From contig CALVIJ010000001.1 of assembly GCA_944329505.1 (NCBI GenBank), positions 1 to 31,204 on the forward strand: a DNA stretch of 31,204 nt. The letters run 5' to 3'. Source of the DNA: an uncultured Bacilli bacterium (GTDB taxonomy: Bacteria > Bacillota_I > Bacilli_A > RF39 > UBA660). The notes beneath the pieces are model-generated. The model made no database searches. It had not been told where the DNA came from and saw nothing but the letters and a program-made list of their open reading frames with translations. A program made the translations under genes and the position numbers. This document shows positions 13,178 through 19,466 of this stretch, in pieces; position 1 is the first letter of the stretch, and each line of letters opens with the position of its first letter.

Positions 13178-15019
13178 CTATTCCTTATTAATTGTAAATG
13201 TAACCTTATATTGACTACCCAAATCTAATTCATCAACATTTACAAAATATCCGTTTTGTTCTATTTTATCAGCGCAATCTCTAAGCATTTTAACAATTTG
13301 TGCGAAATGAGCAGGATTTGCAACTGGTTTAACATCCTGACTAATTGTACTAGCCATTGTTGGCGCTGGTGTGACTGATGGTTCAGAATGTATTGCATAT
13401 TCATTTAAAGCATCATCAGCAATAATATCAGTACTTGGAATAGATGCCTCTAGTGTAGAAGAACTAGGTTCTACTTCACTAACAGGTTCAGATATATTTG
13501 GAATAGAAGGTTCTGGAATAGGAGTAGGTGCTACCTCATTAACAGGGCTAGATACATTTTGAACTGACTCTACTGGAGTTAAAACATTAGGAGTAACTGG
13601 CTCTACCACTTCTTGTACTGGTGTAACAGTTTGGACAGGTTGAATTACTGGTTGTTCAGCGGGTGCTGAAGAAACCTCATTATTGTTTCTTTTAGCCTTA
13701 TTTTCATTATATCTTTTCAAAGCATCTGCTACCGCACTTGAAATAGCTTGCTTAGTATCATCGGAAATCACCTCAGATACAGCACTAGGTTCTTGAACCA
13801 CTCCTGGATTTTGTACAGGTTCTACTGGAGTTGAAACACTAGGGGCAACTGGCTCTACTGTTTCTTGTACTGGTGTCACTGAAGGTGTAGATTGAGTCAC
13901 CGGTTGCTCAGCAGATTTTACTAGCTCAGGTTGTAACCCAGCATTAGCCGTAGTTTGTAAAGACTCAGGTGTTTGCAAAGATACAGGCTGAGTAAACATA
14001 CTATCAAAAGTCACCACATTATTAGCTGGTTGTTGAACTGGTTTTACTGGTTCAGGTTGTGGTGCTACACTTATAAACTTACTAGGTTCTAAATTTGGAT
14101 TTTGTACAGGCTCTTCCCTAACAATCGGTTCACTTTGAACATCATTTCCTGGTTGCATTAAACCAGAAATATCTTTAGGTGCCTCTTGTGGCATATTAAT
14201 ATCCTTTGCTTCTCTCATAATTTTTTCTATATCCATACTTCCATTTCCCCTTTCTTCTCTTACAGGTTTTATATCTTCTACTACTTCGTCAAATAAACTT
14301 TCAATATCTTCCGGAGAACTTTTAACACTCTTAACCTCATTTGATACAGCATTATTCACTTGAGGTTGAATATCTATAGTTACAGGTTTAACAGGTCTAT
14401 TTTCTATTTTAGTTTCTTCACGTAACTTTTCTATTACTTTATCGGTCTGTTTAACTGTCAATCTCTCCTCGACAATCTTATGAAGCATTTCAACTTGTTT
14501 TTCCTTATCAGGTATTCTAAGTAAACTTCTCGCATGTCTTTCAGAAATCTTATTATTAAGTAAATAACTTTGAACTTCATCATCTAAATTTAATAATCTT
14601 ATTTTATTCGCAATCGTAGATTGAGCCTTACCTATCTTTTTAGCAAGCTCTTCTTGTGTAATATATCCCATGTCTAAAATCCGTTTATAAGAAACGGCTT
14701 CTTCAATAGGACTTAATTGTTGTCTTTGGATATTTTCAAGTAGTGCGATTTCTTCACTATCTTTATCCGATAAATTCACGATAATAGCAGGAATGGTAGA
14801 TTTGTTCGCAAGTTTACTAGCTTTAAAGCGTCGTTCACCCGCAATAATCTCATATTTATTGCTGACAGGTCTTACCACAATTGGCTGAATAACGCCATAC
14901 TTCGTGATCGAATCTGCTAGTTCTTCAAGTTTTTCGCCATCAAATTTAATTCGTGGCTGAAACCTGTTTGGTAAAATATCATTAATATTTAAAACCGTTA
15001 ATTGACCATTTTCGAACAC
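13178..15019 (-). CDS. noc: Noc-like ParB-family CTPase with a ~360-aa Pro/Val/Glu/Ser-rich insert
   Basis: PNRFQPR, IAGERRFKA, LLENIQR; HTH GKAQSTIANKIRLL...ISERHARSL (Noc-type, not ParB-type); C-terminus VDELDLGSQYKVTFTINKE resembles the Noc tail; position directly after rsmG. Confidence 0.75.
   Translation of the reverse strand: MFENGQLTVLNINDILPNRFQPRIKFDGEKLEELADSITKYGVIQPIVVRPVSNKYEIIAGERRFKASKLANKSTIPAIIVNLSDKDSEEIALLENIQRQQLSPIEEAVSYKRILDMGYITQEELAKKIGKAQSTIANKIRLLNLDDEVQSYLLNNKISERHARSLLRIPDKEKQVEMLHKIVEERLTVKQTDKVIEKLREETKIENRPVKPVTIDIQPQVNNAVSNEVKSVKSSPEDIESLFDEVVEDIKPVREERGNGSMDIEKIMREAKDINMPQEAPKDISGLMQPGNDVQSEPIVREEPVQNPNLEPSKFISVAPQPEPVKPVQQPANNVVTFDSMFTQPVSLQTPESLQTTANAGLQPELVKSAEQPVTQSTPSVTPVQETVEPVAPSVSTPVEPVQNPGVVQEPSAVSEVISDDTKQAISSAVADALKRYNENKAKRNNNEVSSAPAEQPVIQPVQTVTPVQEVVEPVTPNVLTPVESVQNVSSPVNEVAPTPIPEPSIPNISEPVSEVEPSSSTLEASIPSTDIIADDALNEYAIHSEPSVTPAPTMASTISQDVKPVANPAHFAQIVKMLRDCADKIEQNGYFVNVDELDLGSQYKVTFTINKE
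13557..13879 (-). repeat. Two 71-bp imperfect direct repeats (13557-13627 and 13809-13879) in the noc linker
   Basis: About 12 mismatches in 71 by manual alignment. They encode VTPVQETVEPVAPSVSTPVEPVQN and VTPVQEVVEPVTPNVLTPVESVQN. Confidence 0.9.
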
Positions 15020-15840: not shown

Positions 15841-17693
15841 GCGTTACCTCTTTTCATATACATTGTTAAAATAGAAATATCAGCCGGATTTACCCCACTA
15901 ATTCTCATTGCTTGTCCAATCGTAAGTGGTCTAACTTCTTTTAACTTTTGCTTAGCTTCACTAGCTAAATTATGCATCGCATCATAATCAATATCTTCTG
16001 GTATTTTCTTATCTTCTAATTTTTTTAACTTCTCAGCTTCAAGTAATGACTTTTTAATATATCCCTCATATTTAGCTGATATAGAAATTTGTTCTAAAAC
16101 CTCAAAGCTATATTCATTATCTAAAAACTGAGTTAAATCAGTAATTTTGATTTCTGGTCTTCTAAGTAAATCATATAAAGAAACACCATCTTTTAATTCT
16201 TTAGTACCTAAACTAACTAAATAATCATTATTTTTAGGAGTTAATCTTTTTTCTTTAAATTCTAATGTTGCCTTTTCTATTTCTTCTTTCTTATTAATAA
16301 ACTTCGCATATTTTTCATCAGATACTAATCCAAACTTATGACCATATTCTCTAAGCCTCAAATCCGCATTATCTGTTCTAAGTAAAAGTCTATATTCCGC
16401 ACGTGAAGTTAACAACCTATAAGGATCTCTTATACCTTTGGTAATTAAATCGTCAATTAATACCCCGATATAAGCCTCATCTCTTCTTAAAATAAATGGT
16501 TCCTTACCCTCTAATTTCAAACAAGCATTAATACCAGCCATTAATCCCTGGCAAGCAGCCTCTTCATATCCACTAGTACCATTAATCTGACCAGCAGTAA
16601 ATAAATTTTCAATTAACTTAGTTTCCAAATTAAATTTAAGTTGCGTTGGATAAATCGCATCATATTCTATCGCATAAGCATACTTTAATATCTTCGCATT
16701 TTCTAATCCAGGCAAACTATGAACCATCTTTTCTTGTACATCATAAGGCATACTTGTTGAAAAACCTTGAACATATATATAATCATAATATAAACTTTCA
16801 GGTTCTAAAAATAACTGATGTCTTTCCTTATCACTAAACCTAACTATCTTGTCCTCAATCGATGGACAATATCTTGGACCAACACCTTTAATATCAGATA
16901 ACCCTCCATACATACTAGATTTATTTAAATTATCTCTAATAATTTTATGTGTATCATCATTAGTATAAATTAAATAACAAGACACCTGTTTATCTATATC
17001 ATACATCGGTTCATTATCAAAACTAAAAGTGTGATAAACATTATCGCCATTTTCCAACTTAGTCTTAGAAAAATCAATACTATCTTTAGCTATTCTAGGT
17101 GGTGTTCCAGTCTTTAATCTTTTAATAATAAAACCTTTTTTAGCCAAATTATCACTTAAATAATTAGATGGCTTCTCACCATGAGGTCCCTCTCTATGAC
17201 GAGTATCACCTACCATAATATCCGCATTCATATAAGTACCAGTTGTTAAAATAACCGCTTTAGCTTTAATCTCTTCTCCACTTTCAAATAATACACCACT
17301 AACCTTATTATTAGGAGTTATTATATCTTTAACTAAAGCTTCCTTAATATCTAAATTATCTGTACTCTTCAAAGTTTCAATCATATTTTTCGGATACGTA
17401 ACTTTATCTGCTTGCGCGCGAAGCGATCTAACTGCTGGACCTTTAGCTGTATTAAGCATCTTTATTTGTAATAAACTCTTATCCGCATTATTTCCCATCT
17501 CTCCACCTAAAGCATCGATTTCTCTAACAACTATACCTTTCGCACTTCCACCAATAGATGGATTACAAGGCATATCTGCAATATTATTAATATTTCCTGT
17601 AACAAGTAATGTTTTGTGTCCCATACGTGCACATGCTAAAGCTGCCTCACATCCCGCATGTCCACCACCTACTACAATAACTTCATATTCCAT
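15837..17693 (-). CDS. mnmG: tRNA U34 modification enzyme MnmG (GidA)
   Basis: VVGGGHAGCEAA, MPCNPSIGG, RLKTGTPPR, GPRYCPSIEDK, AGQINGTSGYEEAA, RLLTSRAEYRL. Start ATG 17693. Confidence 0.97.
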   Translation of the reverse strand: MEYEVIVVGGGHAGCEAALACARMGHKTLLVTGNINNIADMPCNPSIGGSAKGIVVREIDALGGEMGNNADKSLLQIKMLNTAKGPAVRSLRAQADKVTYPKNMIETLKSTDNLDIKEALVKDIITPNNKVSGVLFESGEEIKAKAVILTTGTYMNADIMVGDTRHREGPHGEKPSNYLSDNLAKKGFIIKRLKTGTPPRIAKDSIDFSKTKLENGDNVYHTFSFDNEPMYDIDKQVSCYLIYTNDDTHKIIRDNLNKSSMYGGLSDIKGVGPRYCPSIEDKIVRFSDKERHQLFLEPESLYYDYIYVQGFSTSMPYDVQEKMVHSLPGLENAKILKYAYAIEYDAIYPTQLKFNLETKLIENLFTAGQINGTSGYEEAACQGLMAGINACLKLEGKEPFILRRDEAYIGVLIDDLITKGIRDPYRLLTSRAEYRLLLRTDNADLRLREYGHKFGLVSDEKYAKFINKKEEIEKATLEFKEKRLTPKNNDYLVSLGTKELKDGVSLYDLLRRPEIKITDLTQFLDNEYSFEVLEQISISAKYEGYIKKSLLEAEKLKKLEDKKIPEDIDYDAMHNLASEAKQKLKEVRPLTIGQAMRISGVNPADISILTMYMKRGNA

Positions 17694-17720
17694 ATTTCTC
17701 ACCACCAAATACTAGAGTTA

Positions 17721-17749
17721 ATTCTACATCAGAGAAACACTTTAGTCAA
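17721..17749 (-). promoter_or_regulatory. mnmG promoter
   Basis: TTGACT-17 nt-TAGAAT. Confidence 0.7.
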
Positions 17750-17785
17750 ATAAATAAAACTTTTATTTAAAAATAATAAATCTTA

Positions 17786-17814
17786 TTGTATTTTATATAA
17801 CTATTCGTTATAAT
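17786..17814 (+). promoter_or_regulatory. Promoter of the putative type I toxin mRNA
   Basis: TTGTAT-17 nt-TATAAT; predicted +1 near 17821. Confidence 0.75.
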
Positions 17815-17879
17815 TATATCAAGGAATGTTTAATAGAGTTAGTGCGACCTCTTTTTCAAAAGAAAAGGAGGTGATGGTT

Positions 17880-17957
17880 ATGACCAAAAGAGAAAACTCT
17901 TTCTTTGTTATAATTATCCTCCTATTTATTTTAGTATTTTTAATACTATTTAAATAG
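17880..17957 (+). CDS. Putative type I toxin, 25-aa membrane peptide MTKRENSFFVIIILLFILVFLILFK (not in ORF track)
   Basis: SD AAGGAGGT locked in the 11-bp hairpin ACCTCTTTTTC-aaaa-GAAAAGGAGGT (17847-17872); a 17-residue uninterrupted hydrophobic run; terminal Lys. Confidence 0.8.
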   Translation: MTKRENSFFVIIILLFILVFLILFK

Positions 17958-18070
17958 ACAAAAGCACCTAACTCATTCCATCAATGATTTAGGTGCGAAC
18001 CAAGAATTGGTCGTGCTCAACATTGGCGTATTGAACATTCCTTTTTTATTTTATGAAGTTTCCTTCATCT
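17958..18070 (-). ncRNA. Putative convergent antisense antitoxin RNA (~110 nt)
   Basis: Own promoter at 18077-18105; 5' hairpin ATGAAG-GAAA-CTTCAT; terminator GCACCTAA...TTAGGTGC-TTTT (17996-17960); fully complementary to the toxin 3' UTR; no ORF with a usable SD. Confidence 0.7.
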
Positions 18071-18076
18071 ATATAC

Positions 18077-18105
18077 ATAATATCACAAATTTAACTTTAT
18101 GACAA
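18077..18105 (-). promoter_or_regulatory. Promoter of the putative antitoxin RNA
   Basis: TTGTCA-17 nt-TATTAT with an extended -10 TG. Confidence 0.75.
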
Positions 18106-18157
18106 ATTAATTTTACAGCAAATAAAAGACTAATAGATTAAAACTAACTTTATAATA

Positions 18158-18500
18158 CTAGTGTTTAAAATGTTTCCCAGTCAATGTTGTTTCTGATTGA
18201 AAGCTACCTAAATTAGCATCTAAAAATAACTTTATCACCTTTATTGTATATGTCTTTAACTCTTCTAAATTCAAATCAAACAATTCTTTAGTAATATTTT
18301 TATCACCCATTAAAGAACAAGCATATATAAGTGAAACTTCAGAAGCTACTCTAAAATGTGTATCTTTATTACTCTCATCACTTAAACTACGATAGCATGT
18401 ACTAAGCGTATTAATATAATTTTCACCATACATTATTCTTCTAGCTTTTTCATGTGGCTTTTTATATTTAACGCACTTGTTAACCATAAAAATTAATCAT
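18158..18500 (-). pseudogene. Orphan gene, probably frameshifted near its start
   Basis: SD GGGGAA with ATG at 18500 reads MINFYG*. Deleting one T of the T5 run (18488-18492) fuses it to the 109-aa ORF 18487-18158, whose own ATG has no SD. Confidence 0.5.
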
Positions 18501-18593
18501 ATAATTCCCCATATCAAGAGTTTCTTCTATATCTAACAAATAATTTAATTCATTAACATTATTTCCATTTGTATTTTTAAAACAAAACATCTA

Positions 18594-18828
18594 CATTAAT
18601 TTCTCTAACAACTATACCTTTTGCACTTCCATAAATCGCTGAATTACAAGGCATATCTACAATATTATTAGTATTCCCTATAACAAGTAATTTCTTAATG
18701 CCTATACATGCACATACTTAAGCAACTTCACATCCCGCATAACCACCACCTACTACAATTAACTTCATATCCATATAAATTACCACCAAACACTAAAAAC
18801 AATTTTACAATAAAAAAAAGTTAGTCAA
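18594..18828 (-). pseudogene. mnmG: Degenerate duplicate of the mnmG promoter and first ~60 codons
   Basis: Colinear with 17513-17749; ~84% nt identity over codons 6-60 by manual count (27/165 mismatches). Reads MDMKLIVVGGGYAGCEVA*VCAC...DMPCNSAIYGSAKGIVVREI, with an in-frame TAA and a promoter spacer shrunk to 15 nt. Confidence 0.9.
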
Positions 18829-18880
18829 TTAAACCTAACTAACCTTAAATCTACTTTTTCATAATATTCAACCAATTTAA

Positions 18881-19360
18881 TTATTTAACTTTATTATTAG
18901 AGTTTAAAATATGAGAAATAGAATAATTATACTGCGAAATCACACTATTTATAAAACCTTTAATCACATCTGAACAGCATTCTTCAAAAGAATGACCCAA
19001 AGACATTGCATATTTAAAAATTAATTCAATAAATAAATTACGTTCTTTAACATCACATATAAATTCATGATAAACATCATAGCCATTATATATTTCTGGA
19101 TTTGTAGAAATCAGCCCCAAACCATCTGTTGAACGCAATATCAAAATCCAACTATCCGCATCAAACATCCAACCAGTACATTCAAGAAGCATTGCATTTA
19201 ATTCTTCAATTGAAATTGGTAATTCAATATTATTAGTTGCATTCGACAAATATTTTTTTTAATTGTCAGTAACAACTTCAAACTCTTCATCTTCATCAAA
19301 AAGATTTTCTTCTGTATAACCTAATTGATTTAAAATATTACGAAAATTAACATCAAACAT
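18881..19360 (-). pseudogene. Orphan 159-codon gene interrupted by an in-frame TAA at codon 34
   Basis: Strong SD AAGGAGGT with ATG at 19360 reads MFDVNFRNILNQLGY...VTDN* (TAA 19261-19259). The same frame then continues KKY-LSNATNN as track ORF 19249-18881. Confidence 0.75.
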
Positions 19361-19417
19361 TCTTATAACCTCCTTCGAATAAATTATGAAGTTTTCTTCA
19401 CCCAAATACAGAATATC

Positions 19418-19454
19418 AAAAAAACAAGTAATATTTTCGACAAATCACTTGTTT
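19418..19454 (-). terminator. Likely terminator after mnmE
   Basis: AAACAAGTGAT-N11-ATTACTTGTTT (one G:U pair) followed by TTTT. Confidence 0.5.
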
Positions 19455-19466
19455 TACATTTTTATA

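Follow-up and report, generated by a model that had tools for sequence, protein, structure and literature searches.

Type I toxin-antitoxin (TA) modules combine a small hydrophobic peptide gene that carries its own translation signals with a gene for a cis antisense RNA. The described system closest to the locus reported here is bsrG/SR4 of the SPbeta prophage of Bacillus subtilis (Jahn and Brantl 2013, PMC3834814), in which a helix, P1, joins nucleotides (nt) 1–35 of the toxin mRNA to nt 232–262, three stem-loops branch off and the Shine-Dalgarno sequence (SD) lies in a 4-bp helix. When SR4 binds the 3' region of bsrG, nt 1–33 become single-stranded and the SD helix lengthens from 4 to 8 bp, and translation falls besides the RNase III-dependent decay of the mRNA (PMC3834814). 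According to the introduction of that paper, RNase III-dependent decay is also a known route in the B. subtilis systems txpA/RatA, bsrE/SR5 and yonT/SR6, and RNA II of the Enterococcus faecalis pAD1 system par (fst/RNA II) pairs with the fst mRNA at two separate regions, the 3' end and the 5' end. In aapA/IsoA of Helicobacter and hok/Sok of the Escherichia coli plasmid R1, a 5'–3' long-distance interaction is combined with successive anti-SD partners in the 5' untranslated region (UTR) and the open reading frame (ORF) (PMC5416894, PMC6733600). Here we describe a locus at positions 17786–18105 of a 31,204-nt stretch of DNA from an uncultured Bacilli bacterium (contig CALVIJ010000001.1 of assembly GCA_944329505.1; the whole stretch is called the window below). 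We argue, with a probability of roughly three in four, that it is an intact copy of a type I TA module of a previously undescribed sequence family, built like bsrG/SR4.

Two convergent genes beside mnmG

The module is complete within 17786–18105 and adjoins mnmG. The putative toxin promoter lies on the plus strand (17786–17814), with a −35 element TTGTAT at 17786–17791, a 17-nt spacer, a −10 element TATAAT at 17809–17814 and a +1 near 17821. It is absent from the list produced by a consensus scan because its −35 matches at three of six positions only. Across the family, 96 of 126 copies have TATAAT as their −10, the spacer is mostly 17 nt and the distance to the RNA 5' end is fixed. The predicted mRNA runs for approximately 230 nt on the plus strand from the +1 to a U-run (17821–18050, both ends being estimates), and its fold has a free energy of −81.1 kcal/mol compared with −39.9 ± 4.3 kcal/mol after dinucleotide shuffling (z −9.5), and none of 200 shuffled sequences folds as well.

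In the minimum-free-energy (MFE) fold the two ends of this RNA are clamped together. The outer clamp helix, H1, pairs 17821–17835 with 18029–18043 over 15 bp, and the U-run at 18044–18050 follows its 3' strand directly. Two inner long-range helices, H2 and H3, are assigned from the sequence and from covariation in the family, with a 5' strand at 17838–17849 and a 3' strand at 18009–18021; the last bases of the 5' strand, 17847–17849, double as the start of the anti-SD arm. That arm belongs to an 11-bp hairpin with an AAAA loop (17847–17872; 17847–17857 paired with 17862–17872), which is present in the MFE fold and whose outer pairs covary across the family. The hairpin holds the SD, AAGGAGGT, at 17865–17872, with the start codon 7 nt downstream, and in the predicted ensemble of the window copy the probability that the SD pairs with the upstream arm is 1.00.

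The ORF on the plus strand at 17880–17957 (ATG at 17880; TAG at 17955–17957 included) encodes a hydrophobic peptide of 25 amino acids (aa) that belongs to subfamily B of the three peptide groups introduced below. Its grand average of hydropathy is 1.8 for the whole peptide and 3.5 for the last 18 residues, the charged residues are N-terminal, there is no charged C-terminal tail, and the peptide is predicted to be a single membrane helix. Within the ORF, a CCUCCU box at 17918–17923 on the plus strand is a possible second anti-SD. In the corresponding family columns 135–140, 88% of cells are paired with the SD and the variation is one-sided only, which is consistent with a structure without being proof of one.

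The convergent gene starts from a minus-strand promoter at 18077–18105, with a −35 element TTGTCA at 18105–18100, a 17-nt spacer and TGaTATTAT, the −10 lying at 18082–18077; it scores 10 of 12 in the promoter scan and carries the TG extension in addition. TGnTAnnAT preceded by a TTGnnA −35 at a 17-nt spacing is found family-wide, at a fixed distance to the mRNA 3' end. From its sequence this antitoxin promoter looks stronger than that of the toxin, which appears weak to moderate. The predicted antisense RNA (minus strand, 17952–18070 with estimated ends, approximately 115 nt) is complementary to the toxin 3' UTR over its full length. The 3' strands of H1–H3 fall within this stretch, so that the 5' half of the antisense RNA has almost the same sequence as the mRNA 5' end. 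The antisense fold has a z of −4.4, and a covariance model of the antisense RNA (R1) scores the window copy at 123.8 bits. The RNA begins with a 6-bp hairpin on the minus strand at 18053–18068 with a GAAA loop. In 59 of 65 aligned copies a hairpin of at least 4 bp is kept here, in 42 with GAAA or GCAA as its loop, and the differences among the stems are compensated; the GNRA loop arises only in the minus-strand reading. At the other end, a 13-bp hairpin at 17964–17996 serves both strands, as the terminator stem of the antisense RNA and as the complementary stem-loop of the toxin 3' UTR. Only on the minus strand is it followed by a U-rich run, which extends to the stop codon of the toxin. This shared hairpin is the likely first contact site of the two RNAs.

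A preliminary description, made from the letters of the window, had proposed the sense promoter with its +1, the SD hairpin, the peptide and the convergent antisense gene with its GAAA hairpin and a terminator reaching the toxin stop, and each of these was recovered at the positions given. Of the end pairing that it proposed, the outer 15-bp helix with the U-run behind it is confirmed by the fold. The inner pairing of 17838–17849 with 18009–18021 is not in the MFE fold of the window copy, where the inner long-range pairing is limited to 17838–17844 with 18021–18027, yet it covaries family-wide as H2 and H3. A fold of the toxin RNA and a search for homologues with a covariance model had both been suggested there; the fold contains the clamp, and a 65-copy alignment of homologues shows compensatory changes.

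A multi-copy family with covarying RNA structure

We collected 157 loci, which gave 127 distinct full-length copies of the module. The ORF is kept in 115 of the 127 behind a spaced SD and a start codon, and its lengths cluster at 27, 25 and 30 aa. These correspond to three divergent peptide subfamilies on one RNA scaffold: a dominant one of 27 aa starting with MNKKDF, one of 25 aa starting with MTKRE, to which the window copy belongs, and one of 30 aa starting with MKKRTF. Among 56 distinct 27-aa genes the entropy at the three codon positions is 0.77, 0.24 and 0.89, with position 2 nearly invariant. The ratio of nonsynonymous to synonymous differences (pN/pS) is 0.31 in the same genes and pN is the smaller of the two in 99.6% of 1540 pairs; in the two alternative frames the ratio is 0.55 and 2.5. 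Judged by these comparisons, the ORF is clearly under purifying selection. Four tested peptides are missing from a collection of 15 billion proteins, and therefore have apparently never been called as genes.

For the RNA structures we aligned 65 copies with a mutual identity of <88%. In the outer clamp H1, 96.3% of the alignment cells are paired and 8 of 13 pairs have changed on both sides. The corresponding values are 96.3% and 6 of 8 for the second clamp helix H2, 83.5% and 4 of 4 for the third, H3, and 86.4% and 10 of 11 for the antisense terminator hairpin. Overall, both sides have changed in 29 of 42 pairs, and none of 500 shuffles reaches any of these measures. When the 3' partner is slid by 1–3 columns, pairing in H1 and H2 falls to 40–49%. 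G-U pairs outnumber A-C mismatches by 76:11 in H1 and by 60:8 in H2, which argues that these helices are selected in the plus-strand RNA and not in the antisense RNA or the DNA. The predicted probability of H1 has a mean of 0.96.

The SD is buried to an unusual degree. Its predicted unpaired probability has a median of 0.10 compared with 0.42 in a set of 80 ordinary genes from the host genome (p 1e-11). In 60 predicted ensembles it is hidden by the upstream arm in 33, by the CCUCCU-like box of the ORF in 24 and free in 3; the data support translation being locked in two ways. The start of the anti-SD arm (columns 31–33) has conserved partners in two places, immediately behind the SD (columns 64–66) and in the 3' UTR (columns 255–257). 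Column 31 forms GC in 29, AU in 12 and GU in 9 copies with column 66, and GC in 30, AU in 10, GU in 5 and UA in 4 with column 257. The most frequent joint states are G/C/C, in 23 copies, and A/U/U, in 10, and either pair can form in 45 of the 65 copies. Because column 31 covaries with both partners, the sharing of bases between the inner helix and the anti-SD arm is real and under selection.

The host genome is a metagenome-assembled genome (MAG) of 0.96 Mb, 63% complete and with a G+C content of 28.7%. The covariance model finds eight copies of the antisense gene in it, of which five are full modules, the window copy included. Three copies (C26:10245-10382, C19:8034-8171 and C52:927-1080) consist of the antisense gene only, with neither a toxin ORF nor a toxin promoter, and may be decayed modules or free-standing antitoxins. 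Several genomes of the same GTDB family hold 4 to 13 copies by the same model, and relatives reach 13 copies per ~1.2-Mb genome, often in tandem. Thirteen copies in 1.2 Mb is a high load for a reduced genome, and it raises the question of their role, for example in defence, stabilization of genome islands or selfish persistence.

BLAST with a 331-nt module query gives matches in 213 of 301 genomes and 160 of 214 genera of the host's GTDB family, which makes up almost the whole of its order. There are none in 223 genomes from 28 other families of the class, and the antisense covariance model likewise finds no copy in 137 genomes from 25 other families. A conserved word of 21 nt retrieves >120 loci, nearly all of them in MAGs labelled uncultured Bacilli, Tenericutes or Mollicutes, with others in Coprobacillus sp. 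CAG:605 and Firmicutes bacterium CAG:822; the sources are rabbit, human, mouse, ruminant and chicken gut. A few matches lie in MAGs labelled otherwise (Muribaculaceae, a Clostridium sp.), which may be mis-binned contigs. From the record names of the MAGs that bear the family, we take the lineage to be of the RF39 type.

No match to the module is found in phage and plasmid collections (blastn in 'distant' mode). For four peptides, Pfam returns no match and NCBIfam only unrelated rows at chance level (E ≥ 1.6), without a type I toxin family in either. A search of Rfam 15 with E up to 10 returns only four snoRNA or miRNA rows at chance level, and the literature that we searched on type I TA systems in RF39 or Mollicutes held nothing relevant. 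The sequence family is therefore new relative to Pfam, NCBIfam, Rfam and the searched literature, with the bsrG/SR4 design itself being already known.

In many relatives (loci L017, L019, L021, L028, L034 and others) a perfect AAAACGACTT...AAGTCGTTTT hairpin lies at the module edge, and its loop and stem hold the −35 element of the antisense promoter, TTGTCA or TTGACA. The window copy is without this hairpin, which might serve as a bidirectional terminator that insulates the module, or as a site of recombination.

Likely mode of action and rival explanations

The locus has both parts of a type I system, a small hydrophobic peptide gene with its own translation signals and a cis antisense RNA gene recognized by its gene signals, and the layout of Firmicute type I systems that the preliminary description had given it is supported in silico. 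It recognized no named family in the peptide, which agrees with the Pfam and NCBIfam scans, and the RNAs match no family in Rfam. The proposal of a new type I TA family is well supported in silico for the sequences, which are conserved, covarying, multi-copy and unmatched in the libraries, but does not extend to the design, which had already been mapped in bsrG/SR4.

As in bsrG/SR4, the genes converge and the antitoxin is complementary to the mRNA 3' end, a long 5'–3' helix closes the mRNA with stem-loops branching off, and the first stem-loop contains the SD in its helix. In both systems the 3' strand of the closing helix is part of what the antitoxin targets; binding must therefore free the mRNA 5' end, which can extend the SD helix. 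A loop–loop first contact is offered as well, the counterpart in bsrG/SR4 being that of the SR4 terminator loop L4 with bsrG loop 3. In contrast, no sequence similarity links the two systems in the Pfam, NCBIfam and Rfam scans, for the peptide or for the RNAs, and the sizes differ (mRNA ~230 compared with 296 nt, antisense RNA ~115 compared with 183 nt, peptide 25–30 compared with 38 aa). Whereas bsrG has its own terminator stem-loop (nt 263–296) after P1, the U-run of the module abuts the clamp strand and no separate terminator stem-loop follows. The module also differs in that its antisense RNA starts with a GNRA-loop hairpin and in that it is chromosomal, with up to 13 copies, in one uncultured lineage only. 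With more than 100 natural variants, the family offers a ready covariation set for the bsrG-type design of clamp and SD helix, which has so far rested on one or two Bacillus loci. By one account, compact type I modules are being reused as RNA regulatory devices (PMC12721322).

The other Firmicute systems are more distant. The small hydrophobic toxins and the convergent antisense RNAs overlapping the 3' end in txpA/RatA, bsrE/SR5 and yonT/SR6 (reviewed in PMC6562991) resemble the module, but there is no sequence relation, and these systems are located on prophage or prophage-like elements, a link that was not seen for the module. The par system shares the convergent Firmicute type I layout, a membrane peptide of ~30 aa and a 5' structure that limits translation. 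However, the antisense RNA of the module is complementary to the 3' UTR only, its 5' half being a copy of the mRNA 5' end, so that pairing with both mRNA ends in the manner of RNA II is not found. The module peptide also lacks the charged C-terminal tail of the Fst type, and no type I toxin family, Fst included, appeared in the Pfam and NCBIfam scans.

Because the logic of the module is the same and the host genome encodes RNase III (242.7 bits against a cut-off of 166), we take the bsrG/SR4 mechanism as the most likely one. In the order of events that we infer, with both RNAs transcribed between the predicted ends and the peptide toxic, a weak-to-moderate promoter would yield a ~230-nt mRNA for a 25-aa membrane peptide, and this mRNA would close on itself, its first ~30 nt pairing with the last ~35 nt before the U-run through H1–H3. 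With the SD buried in the hairpin, or by the ORF box in many relatives, little peptide is expected from the free mRNA. The TG-extended promoter on the minus strand would produce the ~115-nt RNA, fully complementary to the 3' UTR. By analogy with bsrG/SR4, the complementary loops of the 13-bp hairpin that both RNAs share would make the first contact, the duplex would spread and push the mRNA 5' end out of the clamp, the released anti-SD arm would lock the SD, and RNase III would cleave the duplex of toxin and antitoxin RNA.

The preliminary description had instead suggested a processing-dependent switch. Its starting point, an anti-SD arm shared between two helices, was upheld by the two covarying partners, but the SD is buried in both states and loss of the 3' end frees nothing consistently, and a dependence on processing is not supported. 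The same observations bear on control of the hok/Sok or aapA/IsoA type, in which the clamped mRNA would be an inert store and 3' trimming would refold it into a translatable form, the sole target of the antitoxin. The 5'–3' long-distance helix and the two alternative SD-sequestering partners, in the 5' UTR and in the ORF, recall aapA3 (PMC6733600) and aapA1 (PMC5416894), the two mutually exclusive, covarying partners of the anti-SD arm fit such a switch, and the full-length transcript is predicted to be translationally inert in the module as in these systems, kept so by the 5'–3' interaction. Yet removal of the last 30 nt in silico leaves the SD buried, with a median unpaired probability of 0.12 compared with 0.10. 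In hok and aapA, moreover, the overlap with the antitoxin is in the 5' part of the mRNA and the 3'-processed, activated form is the one acted on, whereas here the antitoxin overlaps the 3' UTR; because it is complementary to that region, 3' trimming would remove part of its target and not expose it. Neither an antitoxin on the 5' part nor an indication of activation by 3' processing is seen, and we regard this type of control as unlikely; the two-partner arm is accounted for at least as well if antitoxin binding drives the switch, as it does in bsrG/SR4.

Two further readings dispense with a toxin altogether. The peptide could be a small membrane protein that does ordinary work without toxicity, such as modulating a membrane complex, with its expression adjusted by a cis-antisense RNA; the module would then be neither an addiction nor a toxin system. 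It would then be no surprise that the peptide is conserved under purifying selection and matches no toxin family, or that the copies are chromosomal and none was matched in the phage or plasmid collections. The extreme burial of the SD and the presence of three divergent peptide subfamilies on one RNA scaffold speak against such a role, and up to 13 copies, tandem arrays, antisense-only remnants and presence or absence among close relatives fit a selfish TA module better, which makes an ordinary membrane protein quite improbable. A structured mobile or repeated non-coding element, with the ORF and the 'antisense gene' as by-products, would account for flanks that are better conserved than the ORF, for many copies at many sites and for a conserved 3' piece that also occurs alone. 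It is hardly credible given that 115 of 127 copies preserve the frame, the SD spacing and the start codon, with lengths clustering at 25, 27 and 30 aa, that the second codon position hardly varies and only the proposed frame has a pN/pS of 0.31, and that the two promoters are fixed in position.

Several points weigh against the type I reading that we prefer. The peptide resembles no known toxin family (Pfam and NCBIfam, four peptides). Shared ancestry of the aligned sequences inflates the shuffle statistics, although the slid-partner controls and the many pair types, which are independent of relatedness, argue that the covariation signal in the alignment is real. When SD accessibility was modelled in 60 copies with the 3' region blocked, with the 3' end truncated or in a nascent 5' fragment, it shifted in no consistent direction; the translation-control step is therefore an analogy and not a result, and no route to a translatable form of the mRNA is visible. 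The DNA of the window is present in chicken-gut metagenomes, but metatranscriptomes hold only positions 18038–18094 of it, as contigs of 31–46 nt with a depth of up to 205, strandless and from other organisms. This was seen in four compared runs, which do not contain the organism of the window, and a second run search gave the same picture. The segment comprises the mRNA 3' end, the antisense 5' end and the antisense −10, and corresponds to a 40–57-nt piece that is conserved family-wide.

Within the bsrG/SR4-like reading, the end-to-end clamp might itself be the intrinsic terminator of the toxin mRNA, with the antitoxin acting by strand displacement at the clamp. The idea arises because the U-run abuts the 3' strand of the clamp and no other covarying hairpin precedes it, and we put it forward tentatively, as rather unlikely. 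If true, termination would need the nascent 3' end to pair with its own 5' end ~200 nt upstream, and termination, mRNA closure and hiding of the antitoxin target would be one folding event. A local 5-bp hairpin before the U-run (median −5.3 kcal/mol) does not covary, with 81.1% of cells paired compared with 81.5% after shuffling; it may be an ordinary terminator, though without support from this comparison.

Genomic neighbourhood

In two genomes of the same genus mnmE is followed by mnmG with a spacer of ~45–85 nt, whereas the interval measures 1.76 kb here (17709–19466), which marks 17709–19466 as an insertion. It contains the TA module, two orphan ORFs and a second, decayed version of the 5' end of mnmG together with the region before it. 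The original of this repeat (~17530–17790) and the decayed copy (~18590–18860) have a column identity of 83%, and together they flank the TA module and the ORF at 18158–18487. ORF109 and ORF122 of the insertion match no Pfam family and are not paralogues. A promoter-like site for mnmG lies on the minus strand at 17721–17749 (TTGACT, 17-nt spacer, TAGAAT). It is 37 nt from the toxin promoter and faces the opposite direction, so that the two promoters are divergent and close.

At the far end of the insertion, the minus strand at 19384–19440 carries a second antitoxin-type promoter with a 5' hairpin (GTGAAG-AAAA-CTTCAT) and no antisense RNA downstream. It is followed by an SD, an acidic ORF of 33 aa (19360–19259) and then the ORF at 19249–18881. 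Because this copy leads into an SD and an ORF, it seems that the promoter-leader piece serves again as a portable module for expression. In relatives, many BLAST matches span only this ~60-nt promoter-leader piece. In two chicken-gut metatranscriptome runs (X17 and X18), the family-wide conserved piece at 18038–18094 reaches summed word depths of several hundred and the rest of the window none, counted on unnormalized, strandless contigs.

Further upstream, the minus strand at 13178–15019 encodes a ParB homologue of 613 aa. Its ParB_N and HTH_ParB domains lie in residues 7–200, and an extension of ~400 residues of low complexity, rich in P, V, Q, E and S, gives it an unusual length for a ParB.

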